Part shown: positions 24,301 to 48,300 of the stretch, piece by piece | Layout: every line of letters starts with the position of its first letter | Numbering within the stretch: position 1 is the stretch's first letter | Source of the DNA: Escherichia coli | Lineage (GTDB): Bacteria; Pseudomonadota; Gammaproteobacteria; Enterobacterales; Enterobacteriaceae | Assembly: GCF_022846255.1 (NCBI RefSeq) | Contig: NZ_AP025682.1 | Strand: one strand, 5' to 3' | DNA: 64,000 bases | Program-made: the position numbers

Positions 24301-27300
24301 GTCTGGAAAGCCATCTACAAAAACTGCTGACCGATGCCGTGAAAATGCGTGGGCTGATTGCGCCCGCCAGCAAAGAAACCCGTATTCCAAAATCGATATA
24401 TGAAGGTATCCAGACCATTAACCGCAATCTGGTTTGTATGCTGGAGTTGCAAATCAATGCATACTGGGCCACGCGCCCCAGCCATTTCGTGTTATTGAAC
24501 GCGCAAAAACTTCGTGATACCCAGCACATGATGCAGCAAATACTGCTGAGCCTTGTTCATGCGCTGTACGAAGGTAATCCGCAGCCGGTTTTTGCCAATA
24601 CGGAAAAATTGAACGATGCTGTGGAAGAGCTGCGTCTGTTGCTTAATAACCACCATGACCTGAAGGTTGTGGAAACACCAATCTATGGTTATGTGTGGCT
24701 GAACATGGAAACGGCGCATCAGCTTGAGTTGCTATCGAATCTGATTTGCCGGGCCTTGCGCAAATAATTCCTGAACTTCAGAATCATCTTGCTGCTGCTT
24801 CGATTCAGCAAGGATAAAGGGTATGATAGTGAAAAGGGATAAAAGCATTGTCATCTGCGGCAGCTATGAGTAATGTTGGCCCTATCGAATAGCGGTTGCT
24901 TAAACGAATCCGACTCTCACATTATCAGGGGTATAAAAATGGAAACTACCAAGCCTTCATTCCAGGACGTACTGGAATTTGTTCGTCTGTTCCGTCGTAA
25001 GAACAAACTGCAACGTGAAATTCAGGACGTTGAGAAAAAGATCCGTGACAACCAGAAGCGCGTCCTGTTGCTGGACAACCTGAGCGATTACATCAAGCCA
25101 GGGATGAGCGTTGAAGCAATCCAGGGCATCATCGCCAGCATGAAAGGTGACTATGAAGATCGCGTTGACGATTACATCATCAAAAATGCCGAGCTCTCCA
25201 AAGAACGCCGCGATATCTCCAAAAAGCTGAAAGCTATGGGCGAAATGAAAAACGGCGAAGCGAAGTAATTCCTGTTTTATTCAATGAGGGTTGCCCGGCA
25301 ACCCTCATTGCTCATTGATTCTTATCTGTGTATCACCGTCATCATTCTCATCTGAGAACCTATCGAAATTAGCGGCAGCCTTCTTCTGTATGCAGCAAGG
25401 CAAAAAGTTCTGTAACTCCATTGTTATTAACCGCACTGGTTACTAACACGTTGTGCGCTCCAGCTTCCCGTAACCAACATTTCACCAAAGATATTTGTTC
25501 CATGCTGGCTAAATCTGCTTTGGTTACTACTCCAATGACCGGGTGATTCATGGCCCGGTAGGGCGTTTTTACCTCTAATTCCTGCTTCAGCGCTGAGATT
25601 CCTGCTTGTTGCCGGAAAAGCAGGCACCTGCCGTCTGAACGGTATCGATCCGGAAGCGTATCTGCGCCATATTCTGAGCATACTGCCGGAATGGCCCTCC
25701 AACCGTGTTGACGAACTCCTGCCATGGAACGTAGTTCTCACCAATAAATAAGCGTCAATATGGTGCTCCGTTGACGCTTACTTTAATCCGTTTTCTGAGC
25801 TTAGATTTTTCTGTTCCTACCCAGACCGTGGATTTGGAATTCATTTTTTGTCAGGTCAATGCTAATCGTTAAAACGGCCATAACGCACCTCCACTGGAAG
25901 GTTTATCAGTAATATCCTACCGTTGCTTCATGGTCGGGGCGTCCATTCCATTATTATCGGTTTTCCTTTCTGTTTATAAATGAAAACGCCAGCTGTATTC
26001 AGGCTGGCGTCAGGGGAAATGAAGCCTGTTGAGTGAGATTCACCGGTTCTGGTGCAGAAGCTGCAGATGGCGCAGGGTAAGGACATCTTCTCTTGCCTGC
26101 TTAATACAGGACAACAGTGCTGTTTCTGTGGTTAATGGCACTATACCCTGCATCACTGCATTGTCTTACAGCAACTGGTGAGGGCTGGCATAAGTTGCCG
26201 GTGTTTCGGTAGAGTCACGGTCATCCACCACGCGGAGTGAATAACCGTTTTCAGCGGCCTTATTAATCAGTTCAGTGATATTAACACCATCAATGTCAAC
26301 GACAATGTGCCCCATATCCAGCGCCTGTACGTTAACGCTGTCGGCTTCCAGTGTCATCATTTCGCCTCCGGATACTTACCCAGGGTAATGTTATTTACCG
26401 TTCTGTAATTGTCGCGGGTCATCAGGCCGGTCGCCCTGCGAGCCCGGAGGATATCGATGCTGTTTATTAACTGAGAGCGGGTACAGGCGCTGAATCCCGG
26501 CTGGTCGGTAGCACCAGCGCGTATTTTTCCACGAGAAAGTTCACCGCATCACACAGTGAAATGCCTGCCTCAATATGCTGCTCAATCACACGTTCATCGG
26601 CAAAAGGTGTGTCATTCTGTGTGAGGCCATAGTGCTGGTCCAGCAGTCGGGACAGCAGTATCTGCCAGATTTCAACAGGAGACGGGCGAGAACTGGCCGC
26701 CTGCCCGGGTAATACAGGTAATGTTTTCATACTGAAGATTTTCCTGATATGCAGATATAAAAATGGAAAAGTGGCGTGGTGAAAACACCAGGCCGTAGCA
26801 GAAGGCTATTCTGGAGAGTTAATTTTTCATTTCGGGCGTCGGATAAACAGCCAGATAAACGTAACCACAACTGCTGAGGGTATCGGCTTTGCAGGTCAGC
26901 CCTTTTGCATACAGCGTGACGGTATGCTGATGGCGGGGATTCAGTTCACCGCTGGTGAGCATGAGCTCCAGTTGTTTCATCAGCAGCGGAAAGGCCTGGT
27001 CCAGGTGGTACGCATCTGCATCGCTGAACAGGCCTCTGATACCGGCGCGGTCGGCAAGGTAATGCAACCGGTTACCCTCCTGCACCAGACGTGCCCCGAA
27101 ACAGGGCGTCACGGTGCAGGGCAGCCCCCACCAGGGGCGGTCGTGATTGTCGTCGGGAAGTGTTGTCCCGGGGAGTGTGTCTGACACGATAAAATCCTCA
27201 CAGAAAATCGGTTAAGAATGGTCCGGTAGTGGCGATAATTCTGCTCATCAGAATGCCCTGACTCAGTTCAGGGTGACACTCATCAGGCGGACATACGGGC

Positions 27301-45300: not shown

Positions 45301-48300
45301 CGTCGTTTGCATCTGCAGGGTATGACGGTTCCGGATTATACGGTGAAGGTGAGAAAGTGGTTTTGTGTGATGTGTGACGAAAATTATGAGGGGGAAAAGT
45401 GCTGCCCGAGTTGTGGTACCGGGGTATACAGCAGGGAGGGGGGGCAGGAGGGCAACTGGAAGGATAGGAACTGAGCGGTTCAGTCGCGGAAATCAGTTGC
45501 AGAGCTGTAATGATATCTCCGGGAGTGCTGCGTTGGTAGGGGCATCCCGGGATAGAGAAATTTTAGCACTTTGCCCTGAATGATTGTAGACGTCCCGAGT
45601 ACTCGTACCGGTCTGAGTTATTACAGTTAGATATTCACTTTTTCTCCCGCATACTTCACATCTGTCAACGACGGATGAAAAGTGGTTCTTCCGCAACCTG
45701 GGTGGAAGAAAATGGATGAAACTTTCTGGCGAACAAGGATCTAAGCTGTTTTAAGTTATGGGCAACGCAATGCACTCTCTTAAGACACTTCTACAGTTAC
45801 CTTGCGGATGGCGATGCAGTCGACAAATTATTAGCTCTGACGGTATAACCCTCCATCTCCACGGAAAACGCAAAACAGCACAATGTCCTGAATGCTTTAA
45901 GCGTAGCGACTCTGTTCATAGTTGTCGTCGGCGCCGGATACAGCATCTACCCTGCTCAGGGCAGACGCTATGGCTTGTATTTTCCGTCCGCCACTGGTAC
46001 TGCCGTAACCCGGCTTGTTCACGTAAAATTTTTGCCGAGTCGCTTGCTCCCTTCGCCAGTTCACACCAGCAGTCTTCACAGGCGTTACAAAATTAACAAT
46101 GTCAACTGGGATTAATAGCTGGAGGTGAGGCTGGAAAACGGGCTGCAACGGCAGTGGGTCTCCGTTGCAGTGCTGATACTCTTCTTCGCAGGCTTATCAA
46201 TACCCCGGAGACGAAACAGTCAGGCGCGCCTCATGTCGGTATTGATGAGTGGGCGTGGCATCGGGGCCACTGCTGCGGTATGTTAATAGTCAATCCTGAT
46301 ACTCACCGTCCCCTCGTCCTGCTTCCCGGCCGTGATCAGCGTACGCTGGCGACCTGGTTCAGAAAATATCCGGAAATACAGGTTGTCTCGCGTGATCGCA
46401 GTGGAGTCTATGCGACAGCAGCACGTGAAGGTGCACCTCAGGCCAGACAGGTGGCCGATCGATGGCACCTGCTAAAAAATATTGGTGATGAGCCTGAACG
46501 AATGATGTACAGACATATGCCTCTGATACGTCTTGTTGTCAGAGAGTTATCACTGAAGAAATCACCTGAGCCAGAAATATCTGTGCCTGTAGCATCGCTC
46601 CGTCGTCTGGAACGCCTTAAACAGCACATCCGCAAAAAACGGCATCAGCGTTGGACAGAGGTTATGGCCCTGCATAACAAGGGATGTAGTTTCAGGGAAA
46701 TATCCCGTATTACAGGCCTGTCGCGAGTGACAGTCAGTCGCTGGGTGGGTTCAGGAACATTCCCTGAAATGTCAACCAGGCCTCCAAAGCGAGGGCTTCT
46801 GGACCCATGGAGGGAGTGGTTAAAAGAGCAACGAGAATGTGGTAATTATAACTCCGGCCGGATATGGCGGGAAATGGTGGCCAGGGGGGTTACAGGCAGT
46901 GAAACCATCGTCAGGGATGCTGTTGCCAAATGGCATAAAGGCTGGATCCCACCGGTTACTACTGCCGCAAGACTTCCTTCAGTGTCCCGGGTAAGCCGCT
47001 GGTTGATGCCCTGGAGAATAATCAGGGGTGAAGAAAATTATGCTTTCCGATTTATTAGTCTGATGTGTGAAAAAGAACCGGAGTTGAAAATAGCGCAGCA
47101 ACTGGTACTCGAGTTCTACCGTATTCTGAAAACCTAAAATAAATCACAGCTAAGCAGCTGGTTCACTCGGGTCCACGAAAGCGGCTCAGCAGAACTTCGG
47201 TGCGTAGCTGCGGGGATGGAAGCTGATGCTGCGGCTATATGTGAGGCAATCAGCAGTCGCTGGAGTACTGGTGTTGTCGAAGGTCATGTAAATCGCCTGA
47301 AGGTGCTGATACGCCAGATGTATGGTCGAGCCGGACTTGAACTACTTAGGCGGAGGGTAATGAGTCCACTGGCATGAAAATCTTCACCTAGGTTGAGGAA
47401 GAGCCACTTTTGCACTGTTCGTGACAGTATGGCCTTTATGTACTCACTTTGTTACCGGTAGCTGGATCATCACTACCGTGCCGCAAATGGTGGTGAACAG
47501 CATCAATTGTGGAATGAATGTTGCCGAAGCGACCAATGCGCCTCGTTTCCACCATCAGTGGTTGCCGGACGAGCTGCGTGTTGAAAAGGGTTTAGTCCGG
47601 ATACGCTCAAGCTGCTGGAAGCAAAAGGTCAGAAAGTGGCGCTGAATGAGGCGATGGGCAGCACGCAAAGCATTATGGTTGGGTCGGATGGTGAGTTGTA
47701 CGGCGCATCCGACTCGCGCTTGGTGGATGATTTAACGGCGGGGTATTAATTGACATCCCCCGGCGCAATGTGCCGGGGGATAATGGTTTTATGCGGTCAA
47801 TAATCGTCCGGGATTATCGATACAGAGTTTTTTGAGGATCGTTTTATCGACGCCGCGCTCCGCCAGATAGGCCAGAAAAACATCTGGAACAAATCCCCAG
47901 CCATTACCGCCATTTTTAGCCCACATTTGTTTAAGGAAGACATCGTGGCTGAGAACAAGCTGATCGGCGTATCCCAACTCAATGAGATGAGCGACGGCAT
48001 CGGCAGTCTCCTGCACCCCTGGCGCTATTCCCTCTTTCGGGAAGGTAATGTCTAGGCCAATCATGTCGAATTCCAGCCAGACACCTTTATCAAGCATTTT
48101 CCGCTGATACGCCACGTCTTTTCCTGACGGATCCGAGTGTGCGAGAGAGACTTTATTTGGCGAGACGCCCATTTCACCTAACACAATGTCGAGTACTTCA
48201 TCACCGCGACGAAGCCAGCCCGGCATGTGAATATTCATCGCCACATGAGGATTGTTAATCTGTGCCAGCGAGGCAGCCCGCAAGCTGTTATGCTCGGCTT

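Follow-up and report, generated by a model that had tools for sequence, protein, structure and literature searches.

The accessory DNA beside tmaR in an Escherichia coli chromosome: probable identity with the cobU island, a common and decayed CP4-family island whose cargo slot holds a dynamin-like/patatin operon

Is the accessory DNA that follows tmaR in this E. coli chromosome a new mosaic element or part of an island already known? The stretch analyzed, hereafter the window, comprises 64,000 nucleotides of contig NZ_AP025682.1 (assembly GCF_022846255.1) and runs from the end of an O-antigen cluster through gnd, ugd, wzzB and the his operon to tmaR (yeeX; 24939-25268, plus strand), the last core gene ahead of the island, beyond which it consists of a long accessory region. 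The initial annotation of this DNA had treated positions 25300-47450 as an island having a CP4-44 backbone that switches to CP4-57-type content and internal slots that still exchange cargo. We find that the region is already known, being a named and ordinary island that thousands of sequenced genomes contain. Our reading, to which we assign a probability of roughly 0.8, is that it comprises the 22 kb nearest tmaR of the cobU island, called GI-CFT073-cobU in strain CFT073 and represented in K-12 by the stump known as CP4-44.

The identification is most readily made by comparison with E. coli SMS-3-5. Window positions 12000-64000 are collinear with SMS-3-5 at 99.9% identity, and thus the SMS-3-5 RefSeq annotation, including that of tmaR, can be transferred to the window. 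Identity is 99.6% from gnd through his and about 99.99% within the island. The end that had been placed at 47450 is arbitrary in that it lies between an ISL3-family transposase pseudogene and a gamma-glutamyltransferase (ggt) fragment; the accessory DNA passes this point and remains collinear with SMS-3-5 up to the window end at 64000. In SMS-3-5 the full island is 77 kb in length and ends at a cbi fragment next to cobU. The tmaR side of the cobU island is therefore seen in the window itself, and the cobU side is seen through the collinearity with SMS-3-5.

GI-CFT073-cobU was reportedly first defined by Lloyd et al. in 2007. It spans c2482-c2528, with 37 coding sequences and no tRNA gene (table 3 of PMC6315130). 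The CFT073 gene order is that of the window: genes encoding a PfkB kinase, a glutamine amidotransferase, a DMT transporter and a phosphotriesterase-related protein are followed by the ggt fragment, the ISL3 pseudogene, the zinc-ribbon genes, the Gp2 and helix-turn-helix (HTH) genes, the gene of a 383-residue hypothetical protein, the dynamin operon, the DUF932 gene, yeeW, truncated pduV and tmaR. The two islands share their site between cobU and tmaR, the junction of truncated pduV with an IS66 fragment, the order of the backbone genes, an operon encoding dynamin-like, RdcB-like and patatin-like proteins together with the two small genes beside it, the block from the ISL3 pseudogene and ggt fragment through the phosphotriesterase-related, DMT, amidotransferase and PfkB genes, and the lack of a tRNA. 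The CFT073 island differs in that a cluster for iron uptake, with a TonB receptor and an ABC transporter, is inserted beside a truncated GTPase gene, in its other insertion sequence (IS) elements (ISEc10, IS100 and ISEc20) and in having an intact cbtA gene. Identity to the window is about 97% for cargo segments of the B2 type, of which Nissle 1917 has an example.

Every gene that had been listed after yeeX is present (yoeF, yeeW, cbtA, cbeA, yeeT, yeeS, antirestriction, DUF932, GTPase, AlpA and YfjJ-like genes), although three of the names require amendment: yoeF is the end of pduV rather than a backbone gene, cbtA is frameshifted rather than intact, and AlpA holds only at the level of the family. 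Nearest tmaR the genes are of CP4-44 type. The cbeA antitoxin gene (26819-27187), yeeT (DUF987; 27263-27484) and yeeS (RadC-like JAB; 27547-28023), all on the minus strand, encode proteins 98-99% identical to those of K-12 CP4-44, and the DNA from dacD to yeeS (22300-28000) is 98.4% identical to K-12. The adjoining cbtA toxin gene (26357-26730, minus strand) is a pseudogene, with a frameshift after about 73 codons that is evident both from stop codons in its translation and from a split tblastn match. It is frameshifted also in SMS-3-5, TUM10828 and O157:H7 and intact in K-12 and CFT073. The cbeA antitoxin gene is intact alongside the frameshifted toxin gene.

Beyond yeeS lie, on the minus strand, an antirestriction gene (28039-28518; PHROG anti-restriction match, E = 1.3e-62), a DUF932 gene (28600-29421) and, past the cargo, a full-length YeeP/YfjP-family GTPase gene (35470-36342; 49% identical to YfjP). 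Farther on is a gene of 68 codons for an AlpA-family HTH protein (42113-42319, minus strand), which matched Pfam Phage_AlpA (E = 1.8e-5) and the PHROG excisionase/regulator families. K-12 AlpA itself gave no tblastn match at E ≤ 1e-3. The last of these genes encodes a YfjJ-like protein of the 'inovirus Gp2 family' (43849-44418, plus strand; 36% identical to YfjJ). This order, CbtA/CbeA, DUF987, RadC-like, antirestriction, DUF932, YeeP-type GTPase, AlpA-like and YfjJ-like, is also that of CP4-6, CP4-57 and the serX, aspV and selC islands, which shows that the island belongs by descent to the CP4-6/CP4-44/CP4-57 family of integrative islands. CP4-57 and CP4-6 have the same architecture of toxin-antitoxin, DUF987, RadC, antirestriction, DUF932, GTPase and YfjJ-like genes, and CP4-6 resembles the island further in carrying IS-ridden metabolic cargo past its GTPase gene. 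However, these two elements sit at ssrA and thrW with the integrase genes intA and intF, and both lack the dynamin operon.

The proposed switch to CP4-57-type content after yeeS fails on identity levels. Alignment to CP4-57 gave only short pieces of 70-72% DNA identity, far from a near identity of at least about 95% over the antirestriction, DUF932 and GTPase genes. The proteins encoded by these three genes are 49-74% identical to their CP4-57 counterparts (67-74% for the antirestriction and DUF932 proteins) and 95-97% identical to those of TUM10828, a strain having a full-length island with flu at this same locus (97% for the antirestriction protein and 95% for DUF932). Taken over the backbone, protein identity is 95-100% to the CP4-44 type versus 49-81% to CP4-57 and CP4-6. 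A CP4-44/CP4-57 recombinant was therefore rejected; the genes in question are the island's own backbone, which K-12 has lost by deletion.

Three K-12 deletions could be mapped. The first, of 3357 bp, extends from yeeS codon 8 into the yeeR gene and took the antirestriction, DUF932, DUF905 and IrmA genes, the sequence encoding the C-terminal 332 residues of YeeR and the first 8 yeeS codons. Hence K-12 YeeR (510 residues) is the truncated front of an 838-residue protein, the full gene of which is found at 17459-19975 of the TUM10828 locus. The second deletion removed 17.1 kb, beginning midway through the GTPase gene and ending at window position 53140 (36022-53140), and left the yeeP pseudogene, which is the 3' remnant of this GTPase gene (96.4% identity between K-12 yeeP and window 35467-36022). 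The third removed about 47 kb more, up to the TonB-receptor gene yoeA. K-12 CP4-44 (12.7 kb) is thus a multiply deleted stump of the 77-kb island. The K-12 locus (yeeP'-isrC-flu-yeeR-yeeS-yeeT-cbeA-cbtA-yeeW-yoeF) is orthologous to that of the window; it differs in holding the Ag43 cargo allele, in having gained IS5 and IS2 and in its intact cbtA. The K-12 arrangement of flu and yeeR between yeeP and yeeS is absent from the window. Flu and YeeR gave no tblastn match there, and five different genes occupy 29574-35467, as the initial annotation had noted in saying that the flu and yeeR positions hold other cargo. Several K-12 annotations are in need of correction: CP4-44 is a stump, yoeF is a pduV relic, yeeR is a truncated 838-codon gene and yeeP is the tail of a GTPase gene.

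How widespread is the arrangement? Searches were made of 5426 complete E. coli genomes, and the class counts given here reflect coverage thresholds rather than phylogeny. The 23-kb region was found in one place at a coverage of at least 80% in 1668 of the 5426 genomes, with identities of up to 99.8%. A query consisting of the core flank plus cargo (22000-35300, tmaR through dynamin) was found at the same coverage in 2051 genomes, a count that takes in O157:H7, in which an IS truncates the dynamin gene. The Ag43 allele, with the K-12 deletion form included, was present at that coverage in at least 885 genomes. The arrangement is therefore shared by 31-38% of the complete genomes, and the dynamin type is the commonest slot allele at this locus. 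The window-type allele is carried by CFT073, SMS-3-5 and O157:H7, which we take to be of phylogroups B2, F and E, respectively. Its presence in these three strains, together with the roughly 97% identity of the B2-type copies, argues for a long residence of the dynamin allele at the tmaR locus. The arrangement is a common, inherited variant and not a fresh exchange, and it answers to the finding that the initial annotation had itself named as speaking against a mosaic, namely a known, collinear element with the same cargo in many strains.

These data bear directly on the view that the region is a recent mosaic of CP4-44 and CP4-57 with slots actively swapping cargo. In its favor the gene families after yeeS do have CP4-57 paralogues, polymorphism of the slot at this locus is real, and a short tract of possible conversion (described below) distinguishes otherwise near-identical strains. 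These points are outweighed by the low identity to CP4-57 at both the DNA and protein levels, by the much higher protein identity to a full-length island at the same locus, by the mapped deletions that account for the absence of these genes from K-12 and by the spread of the arrangement through a third or so of the complete genomes, those of CFT073, SMS-3-5 and O157:H7 among them. Such an origin is improbable, and of the claim that slots still exchange cargo what survives is the variable slot; ongoing exchange is represented only by the short tract, which may be an assembly chimera. The claim is right to the extent that recombination among sister islands has shaped this family and, on occasion, still patches it.

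Slot A, the cargo slot (29574-35467, minus strand), is 5.9 kb in length and was delimited by homology breakpoints against TUM10828 and against the O157 serX and avian pathogenic E. coli (APEC) aspV islands. In the window it contains two small genes encoding exported proteins plus the three-gene dynamin operon. The TUM10828 slot is 6.9 kb and contains DUF905-IrmA-YeeR (838 residues)-Ag43, whereas that of K-12 contains isrC-flu-yeeR. Homology to TUM10828 stops at 29574, which is 153 nucleotides upstream of the DUF932 start, and resumes at 35467, the stop codon of the GTPase gene. The 29574 breakpoint is seen again when the window is compared with the serX and aspV islands, which have the three-gene operon (30802-35256) without the two small genes. 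The conserved backbone on both sides shows that the interval between the GTPase and DUF932 genes is a true accessory slot.

The two small genes, both on the minus strand, encode proteins of 136 residues (29642-30052) and 227 residues (30068-30751). Both proteins have hydrophobic N-termini and predicted signal peptides, and neither gave a significant match in Pfam or the PDB; in PHROG only the 136-residue protein had a match, to a family whose function is unknown. NCBIfam had nothing for the hypothetical proteins. These genes accompany the dynamin operon at the tmaR locus, and some genomes hold them without the operon. They are a module separable from the operon.

How did two such different alleles come to occupy one slot? 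Outside about 28.8-43.2 kb the window and TUM10828 are 99-100% identical. Within these limits the shared backbone sequences have diverged: identity is 85-86% upstream of the DUF932 gene, 94-97% in the GTPase gene and 83-95% in the region of the 200-residue hypothetical protein and AlpA. As these diverged flanks lie within surroundings of at least 99% identity, we infer that the two alleles differ by one central homologous replacement of about 14 kb from a sister island rather than by an insertion or deletion. The alternative is that an ancestral island had both Ag43 and the dynamin operon and that lineage-specific deletions alone, with no exchange of cargo, gave the present alleles. This is suggested by the O157 serX island, in which the dynamin operon directly adjoins cah (a member of the Ag43 family) in the same slot, and by the deletion-shaped K-12 locus and the O157 tmaR locus, which derives from the window type by deletion. 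However, simple deletion would leave the flanking backbone alike in the two alleles, whereas the GTPase, hypothetical protein/AlpA and DUF932-upstream sequences all differ within a segment bounded by DNA of at least 99% identity, a pattern that fits replacement by a diverged copy. Moreover, the two cargoes were found together at the tmaR locus in none of the genomes of the spread samples. We regard the deletion-only scheme as having little chance of being correct, about as little as the mosaic.

Replacement from a sister island receives support from the operon copies found in other islands. Relative to the O157 serX copy, identity is 99.5-100% over 30800-33200 and 73-94% over 33400-35400; relative to the APEC aspV copy, identity alternates (90-95%, 98-100%, 88-94% and 100%). 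These patterns suggest that homologous recombination or gene conversion among paralogous islands links the slot alleles to one another and to the serX and aspV operon copies. Recombination would run through the backbone genes, which are 85-97% identical, and would require no dedicated cassette mechanism. Substrates for such events should be plentiful, as genomes that carry this backbone segment have a median of three copies. The island family would thus diversify by homologous recombination among paralogous copies and not by a cassette mechanism. The island itself probably propagates by vertical descent plus homologous recombination of the his/O-antigen neighborhood.

A smaller tract may be a further example. 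Over 41.3 kb the window and SMS-3-5 have 42 differences, and 37 of these fall within a patch at 26966-27829 that spans the cbeA 5' end, yeeT and the yeeS 3' end. At 21 of the 37 sites the window differs from all four orthologous copies and at 34 of the 37 it matches the paralogous copy in GI-selC of CFT073. The patch core (about 27199-27629) is 99.3% identical to paralogues, and the best match to the whole patch among the 5426 genomes was 97.2%. The patch, roughly 0.4-0.9 kb, arose either by gene conversion or, less interestingly, when paralogous copies were merged into a chimera in assembly. SMS-3-5 has 16 private changes of its own inside this stretch, which may thus be a hot spot of gene conversion if it is no such chimera.

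The tmaR-side junction shows what the island displaced and what it lost. In strain ES3, tmaR is followed by intact pduV, pduU, pduT and the remainder of the pdu operon, an arrangement in which intact pdu directly follows tmaR and which is found in 614 of the 5426 genomes. In the window, tblastn with ES3 PduV detected a truncated pduV (25369-25554, minus strand) 93% identical to residues 87-147 of the intact protein. This forms the 3' part of the K-12 yoeF open reading frame (25369-25725). Hence yoeF is the pduV 3' end, a relic of the displaced pdu operon that marks the island boundary, and is not island backbone. On the far side, SMS-3-5 and CFT073 have fragments of a cbi gene and of IS4 next to cobU. 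The island is thus shown to take the place of the pdu-cbi operons. Strains with the island share a single breakpoint in pduV (about 25552 in the window), at which the gene is joined to an IS66-family transposase fragment (25614-25784, plus strand; K-12 yoeD, located by SMS-3-5 annotation and DNA alignment), followed by a DUF957 fragment (26040-26132) and truncated yeeW (DUF5983; 26166-26360), which together occupy 26040-26360 on the minus strand in the SMS-3-5 annotation. The junction was identical in every island-bearing strain examined. In the intact serX and aspV islands the yeeW side runs via DUF957 and DUF4942 genes to a tRNA; hence, the native terminus (DUF4942 gene, attachment (att) site and tRNA) has been lost here and an IS66 scar stands in its place. 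The IS66 junction segment also matches IS66-family elements on many plasmids. A second IS66-family fragment at 51940-52101 is inverted relative to that at 25623-25784, which lies exactly at the island/pduV junction; the two are 88% identical and 26 kb apart and may be traces of the rearrangement that made the junction.

Other signs also indicate that the island no longer moves. ARAGORN found no tRNA gene in the whole window, and tblastn with IntA and with an island integrase fragment detected no integrase remnant there, in agreement with the initial annotation. The complete islands of SMS-3-5 and CFT073 have no annotated integrase and no tRNA at either end. A search of 25300-47800 for direct and inverted repeats that might be att or cassette sites gave only short, chance-level matches, and thus neither flanking repeats of significance nor an integrase were recovered. 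No phage structural, packaging or lysis genes are annotated in the collinear SMS-3-5 and CFT073 RefSeq records, and the PHROG matches of the ten proteins tested were limited to anti-restriction, excisionase/regulator, one DNA-binding-protein family and families of unknown function. Decay is evident in the IS150, ISL3, IS66 and other transposase scars, the pseudogenes and the truncated native end. Given the absence of integrase, tRNA and att repeat and a native end cut at an IS66 scar in pduV, these data show the island to be a fixed, non-mobile remnant of a CP4-family integrative island, and the description of it as a decayed remnant stands. It is extremely unlikely to be a still-functional integrative or mobilizable element or prophage with its integrase and att site beyond the window, as might be supposed from its AlpA-like and antirestriction genes and from the siting of the CP4-57, CP4-6, serX and aspV islands at tRNA genes with integrases or integrase fragments, because the complete SMS-3-5 and CFT073 islands lack integrase and tRNA at both ends, the tmaR-side terminus is truncated yeeW and DUF957 sequence joined to the IS66 scar in pduV, that junction is the same in all island-bearing strains examined, and phage structural genes are not annotated.

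What, then, is the cargo? The three genes of the operon (30887-35252, minus strand) have overlapping stop and start codons. The first (32856-35252, minus strand) encodes a dynamin-like GTPase of 798 residues in which the P-loop, DxxG and NKxD motifs are present, the second (31954-32859, minus strand) encodes an RdcB/YjcZ-like protein of 301 residues that is 30% identical to K-12 RdcB, and the third (30887-31957, minus strand) encodes a patatin-like phospholipase of 356 residues. None of the patatin motifs (GGGxxG, GASIG and DGG) has been lost: the GGGAVG oxyanion, GASIG serine and DGG aspartate elements expected of a competent enzyme are all found, and the protein matches the structures of PlpD, VipD and ExoU. 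No transmembrane segments were predicted in any of the three proteins.

The closest known system is the core RdcA/RdcB pair (YjdA/YjcZ; RdcA is also called CrfC), which likewise consists of overlapping genes for a dynamin-like GTPase and a YjcZ-family partner, both predicted to be soluble. The cargo operon differs in adding a translationally coupled patatin-like gene and in its location on mobile islands and plasmids, and identities are only 33% (RdcA/CrfC) and 30% (RdcB). The dynamin protein scored 556 bits against the NCBIfam CrfC equivalog model, for which the cut-off is 1146. Thus, the pair is a paralogous family and not the RdcA/RdcB equivalogs. Core RdcA/RdcB activates the diguanylate cyclase DgcE (PMC6510439).

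The operon is both widespread and conserved. Its DNA was matched in 2715 of the 5426 E. coli genomes, and the triad is kept as a unit in Pectobacterium, Pseudomonas and Vibrio at 47-64% protein identity. The Pectobacterium copy lies within another CP4-like island, that of Pseudomonas fluorescens lies beside BrxR/WYL, ADP-ribosylglycohydrolase and integrase genes, and that of Vibrio parahaemolyticus is near SIR2 and DUF87 genes. Copies are also found on Klebsiella, Enterobacter and E. coli plasmids. On the K. pneumoniae IncR plasmid NZ_CP127520.1 (6977-10991) the RdcB-like protein is 62% identical to that of the window, and the first gene, annotated 'dGTPase', starts at an IS1 element and is shorter than the chromosomal dynamin gene, probably having been shortened by IS1. 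No homologue of the RdcB-like protein was found in the phage collection.

A role in defense is suggested by a 2026 transcriptome study in which homologous operons were strongly up-regulated in lysogens and a defense function was proposed (PMC12922286). Two known systems were considered and rejected. Eleos (LeoA plus LeoBC) resembles the operon in having a dynamin-family GTPase on mobile DNA and a proposed membrane-level role in defense, but the partner proteins are not the same. In the PADLOC search the dynamin protein matched LeoBC over residues 29-89 only (E = 8.6e-5) with no match to LeoA, for which a marginal match (E = 0.0039) came from the backbone GTPase; full-length matches to both models were lacking. 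A CapV-type effector of CBASS was rejected in that the patatin-like protein scored 19.5 bits versus a cut-off of 200 for the NCBIfam CBASS_lipase model and no cyclase gene is nearby. In the literature we found passing mentions only, and neither a characterized defense system composed of dynamin and patatin nor an account that names the backbone family.

Most likely, the three products would act on the membrane as a single soluble unit of GTPase, partner and phospholipase. Our best guess is that the operon is a candidate phage-defense or membrane-stress system in which the phospholipase would be gated by the GTPase. More speculatively, and with the odds against us, the operon could be an autonomous, horizontally mobile three-gene system (proteins of ~800, ~300 and ~357 residues) outside the defense catalogues, in which the GTPase pair would sense a cue from the membrane or from infection and fire the phospholipase. 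If true, roughly half of E. coli genomes would contain a new anti-phage or membrane-damage system. Widespread, conserved across genera and mobile, the operon is the one forward-looking point of this locus.

Several considerations weigh against the interpretation given above. The cobU end lies beyond the window, and so the full extent of the island relies on the collinearity with SMS-3-5. The genome classes were set by coverage rather than phylogeny, and about 1876 genomes fall outside all three of those counted. The patch of clustered differences may have been created in short-read assembly by the joining of paralogous copies. As for the operon, its proposed function is a prediction from sequence, and PADLOC analysis of ten island proteins gave weak partial matches only and no known defense system.

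Beyond the GTPase gene lies a second variable segment (segment B, 36440-41433), where TUM10828 has a YfjI-family gene instead. It includes the gene of the 383-residue protein (36426-37577), conserved in SMS-3-5 and CFT073, for which searches of Pfam, PHROGs, NCBIfam, PADLOC and the PDB sequences gave no match. Fragments of AAA-ATPase and other genes follow (38708-39141), and then an IS150 transposase (39505-40874), the terminal inverted repeats of which were not delimited by a simple repeat search. Next come the gene of a 200-residue hypothetical protein (41417-42019, minus strand), which had no significant family in Pfam, PHROG or PDB searches, and, past the AlpA-family gene, a small hypothetical gene (43449-43649, minus strand). 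After the YfjJ-like gene there are two zinc-ribbon genes (44678-45474, plus strand). The ISL3-family transposase pseudogene (45758-47377) and the ggt fragment (47457-47749), both on the plus strand, were placed by the SMS-3-5 and CFT073 annotations.

The remainder of the window (47789-64000) is the continuation of the island, collinear with SMS-3-5, and only 53140-53330 of it is present in K-12 CP4-44. It contains the phosphotriesterase-related, DMT transporter, glutamine amidotransferase and PfkB kinase genes, IS scars and asp/dcu-type genes, together with a LysR regulator, an IS200 pseudogene, an MFS transporter and dgo-like genes. The aspartate ammonia-lyase segment at 53378-54828 has a second, inverted copy of 99.4% identity elsewhere in the SMS-3-5 island, an internal duplication.

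At the opposite end of the window the low-GC O-antigen genes (1-3458) have no counterpart in SMS-3-5, whereas the DNA from gnd onward (3459-12041) is shared. The pattern resembles a switch of O-antigen genes within an almost identical background. Recombination is especially frequent in the E. coli his/rfb neighborhood, and the finding of the same island with different O-antigen genes in the window and SMS-3-5 is in keeping with this. An Rfam search of the whole window found nothing within the 25300-47450 region and matched only the His leader, STnc240 and STnc490. The last of these, an Hfq-binding small RNA, was matched with a score of 122 bits at 58887-59010, just downstream of the IS200/IS605 transposase pseudogene.

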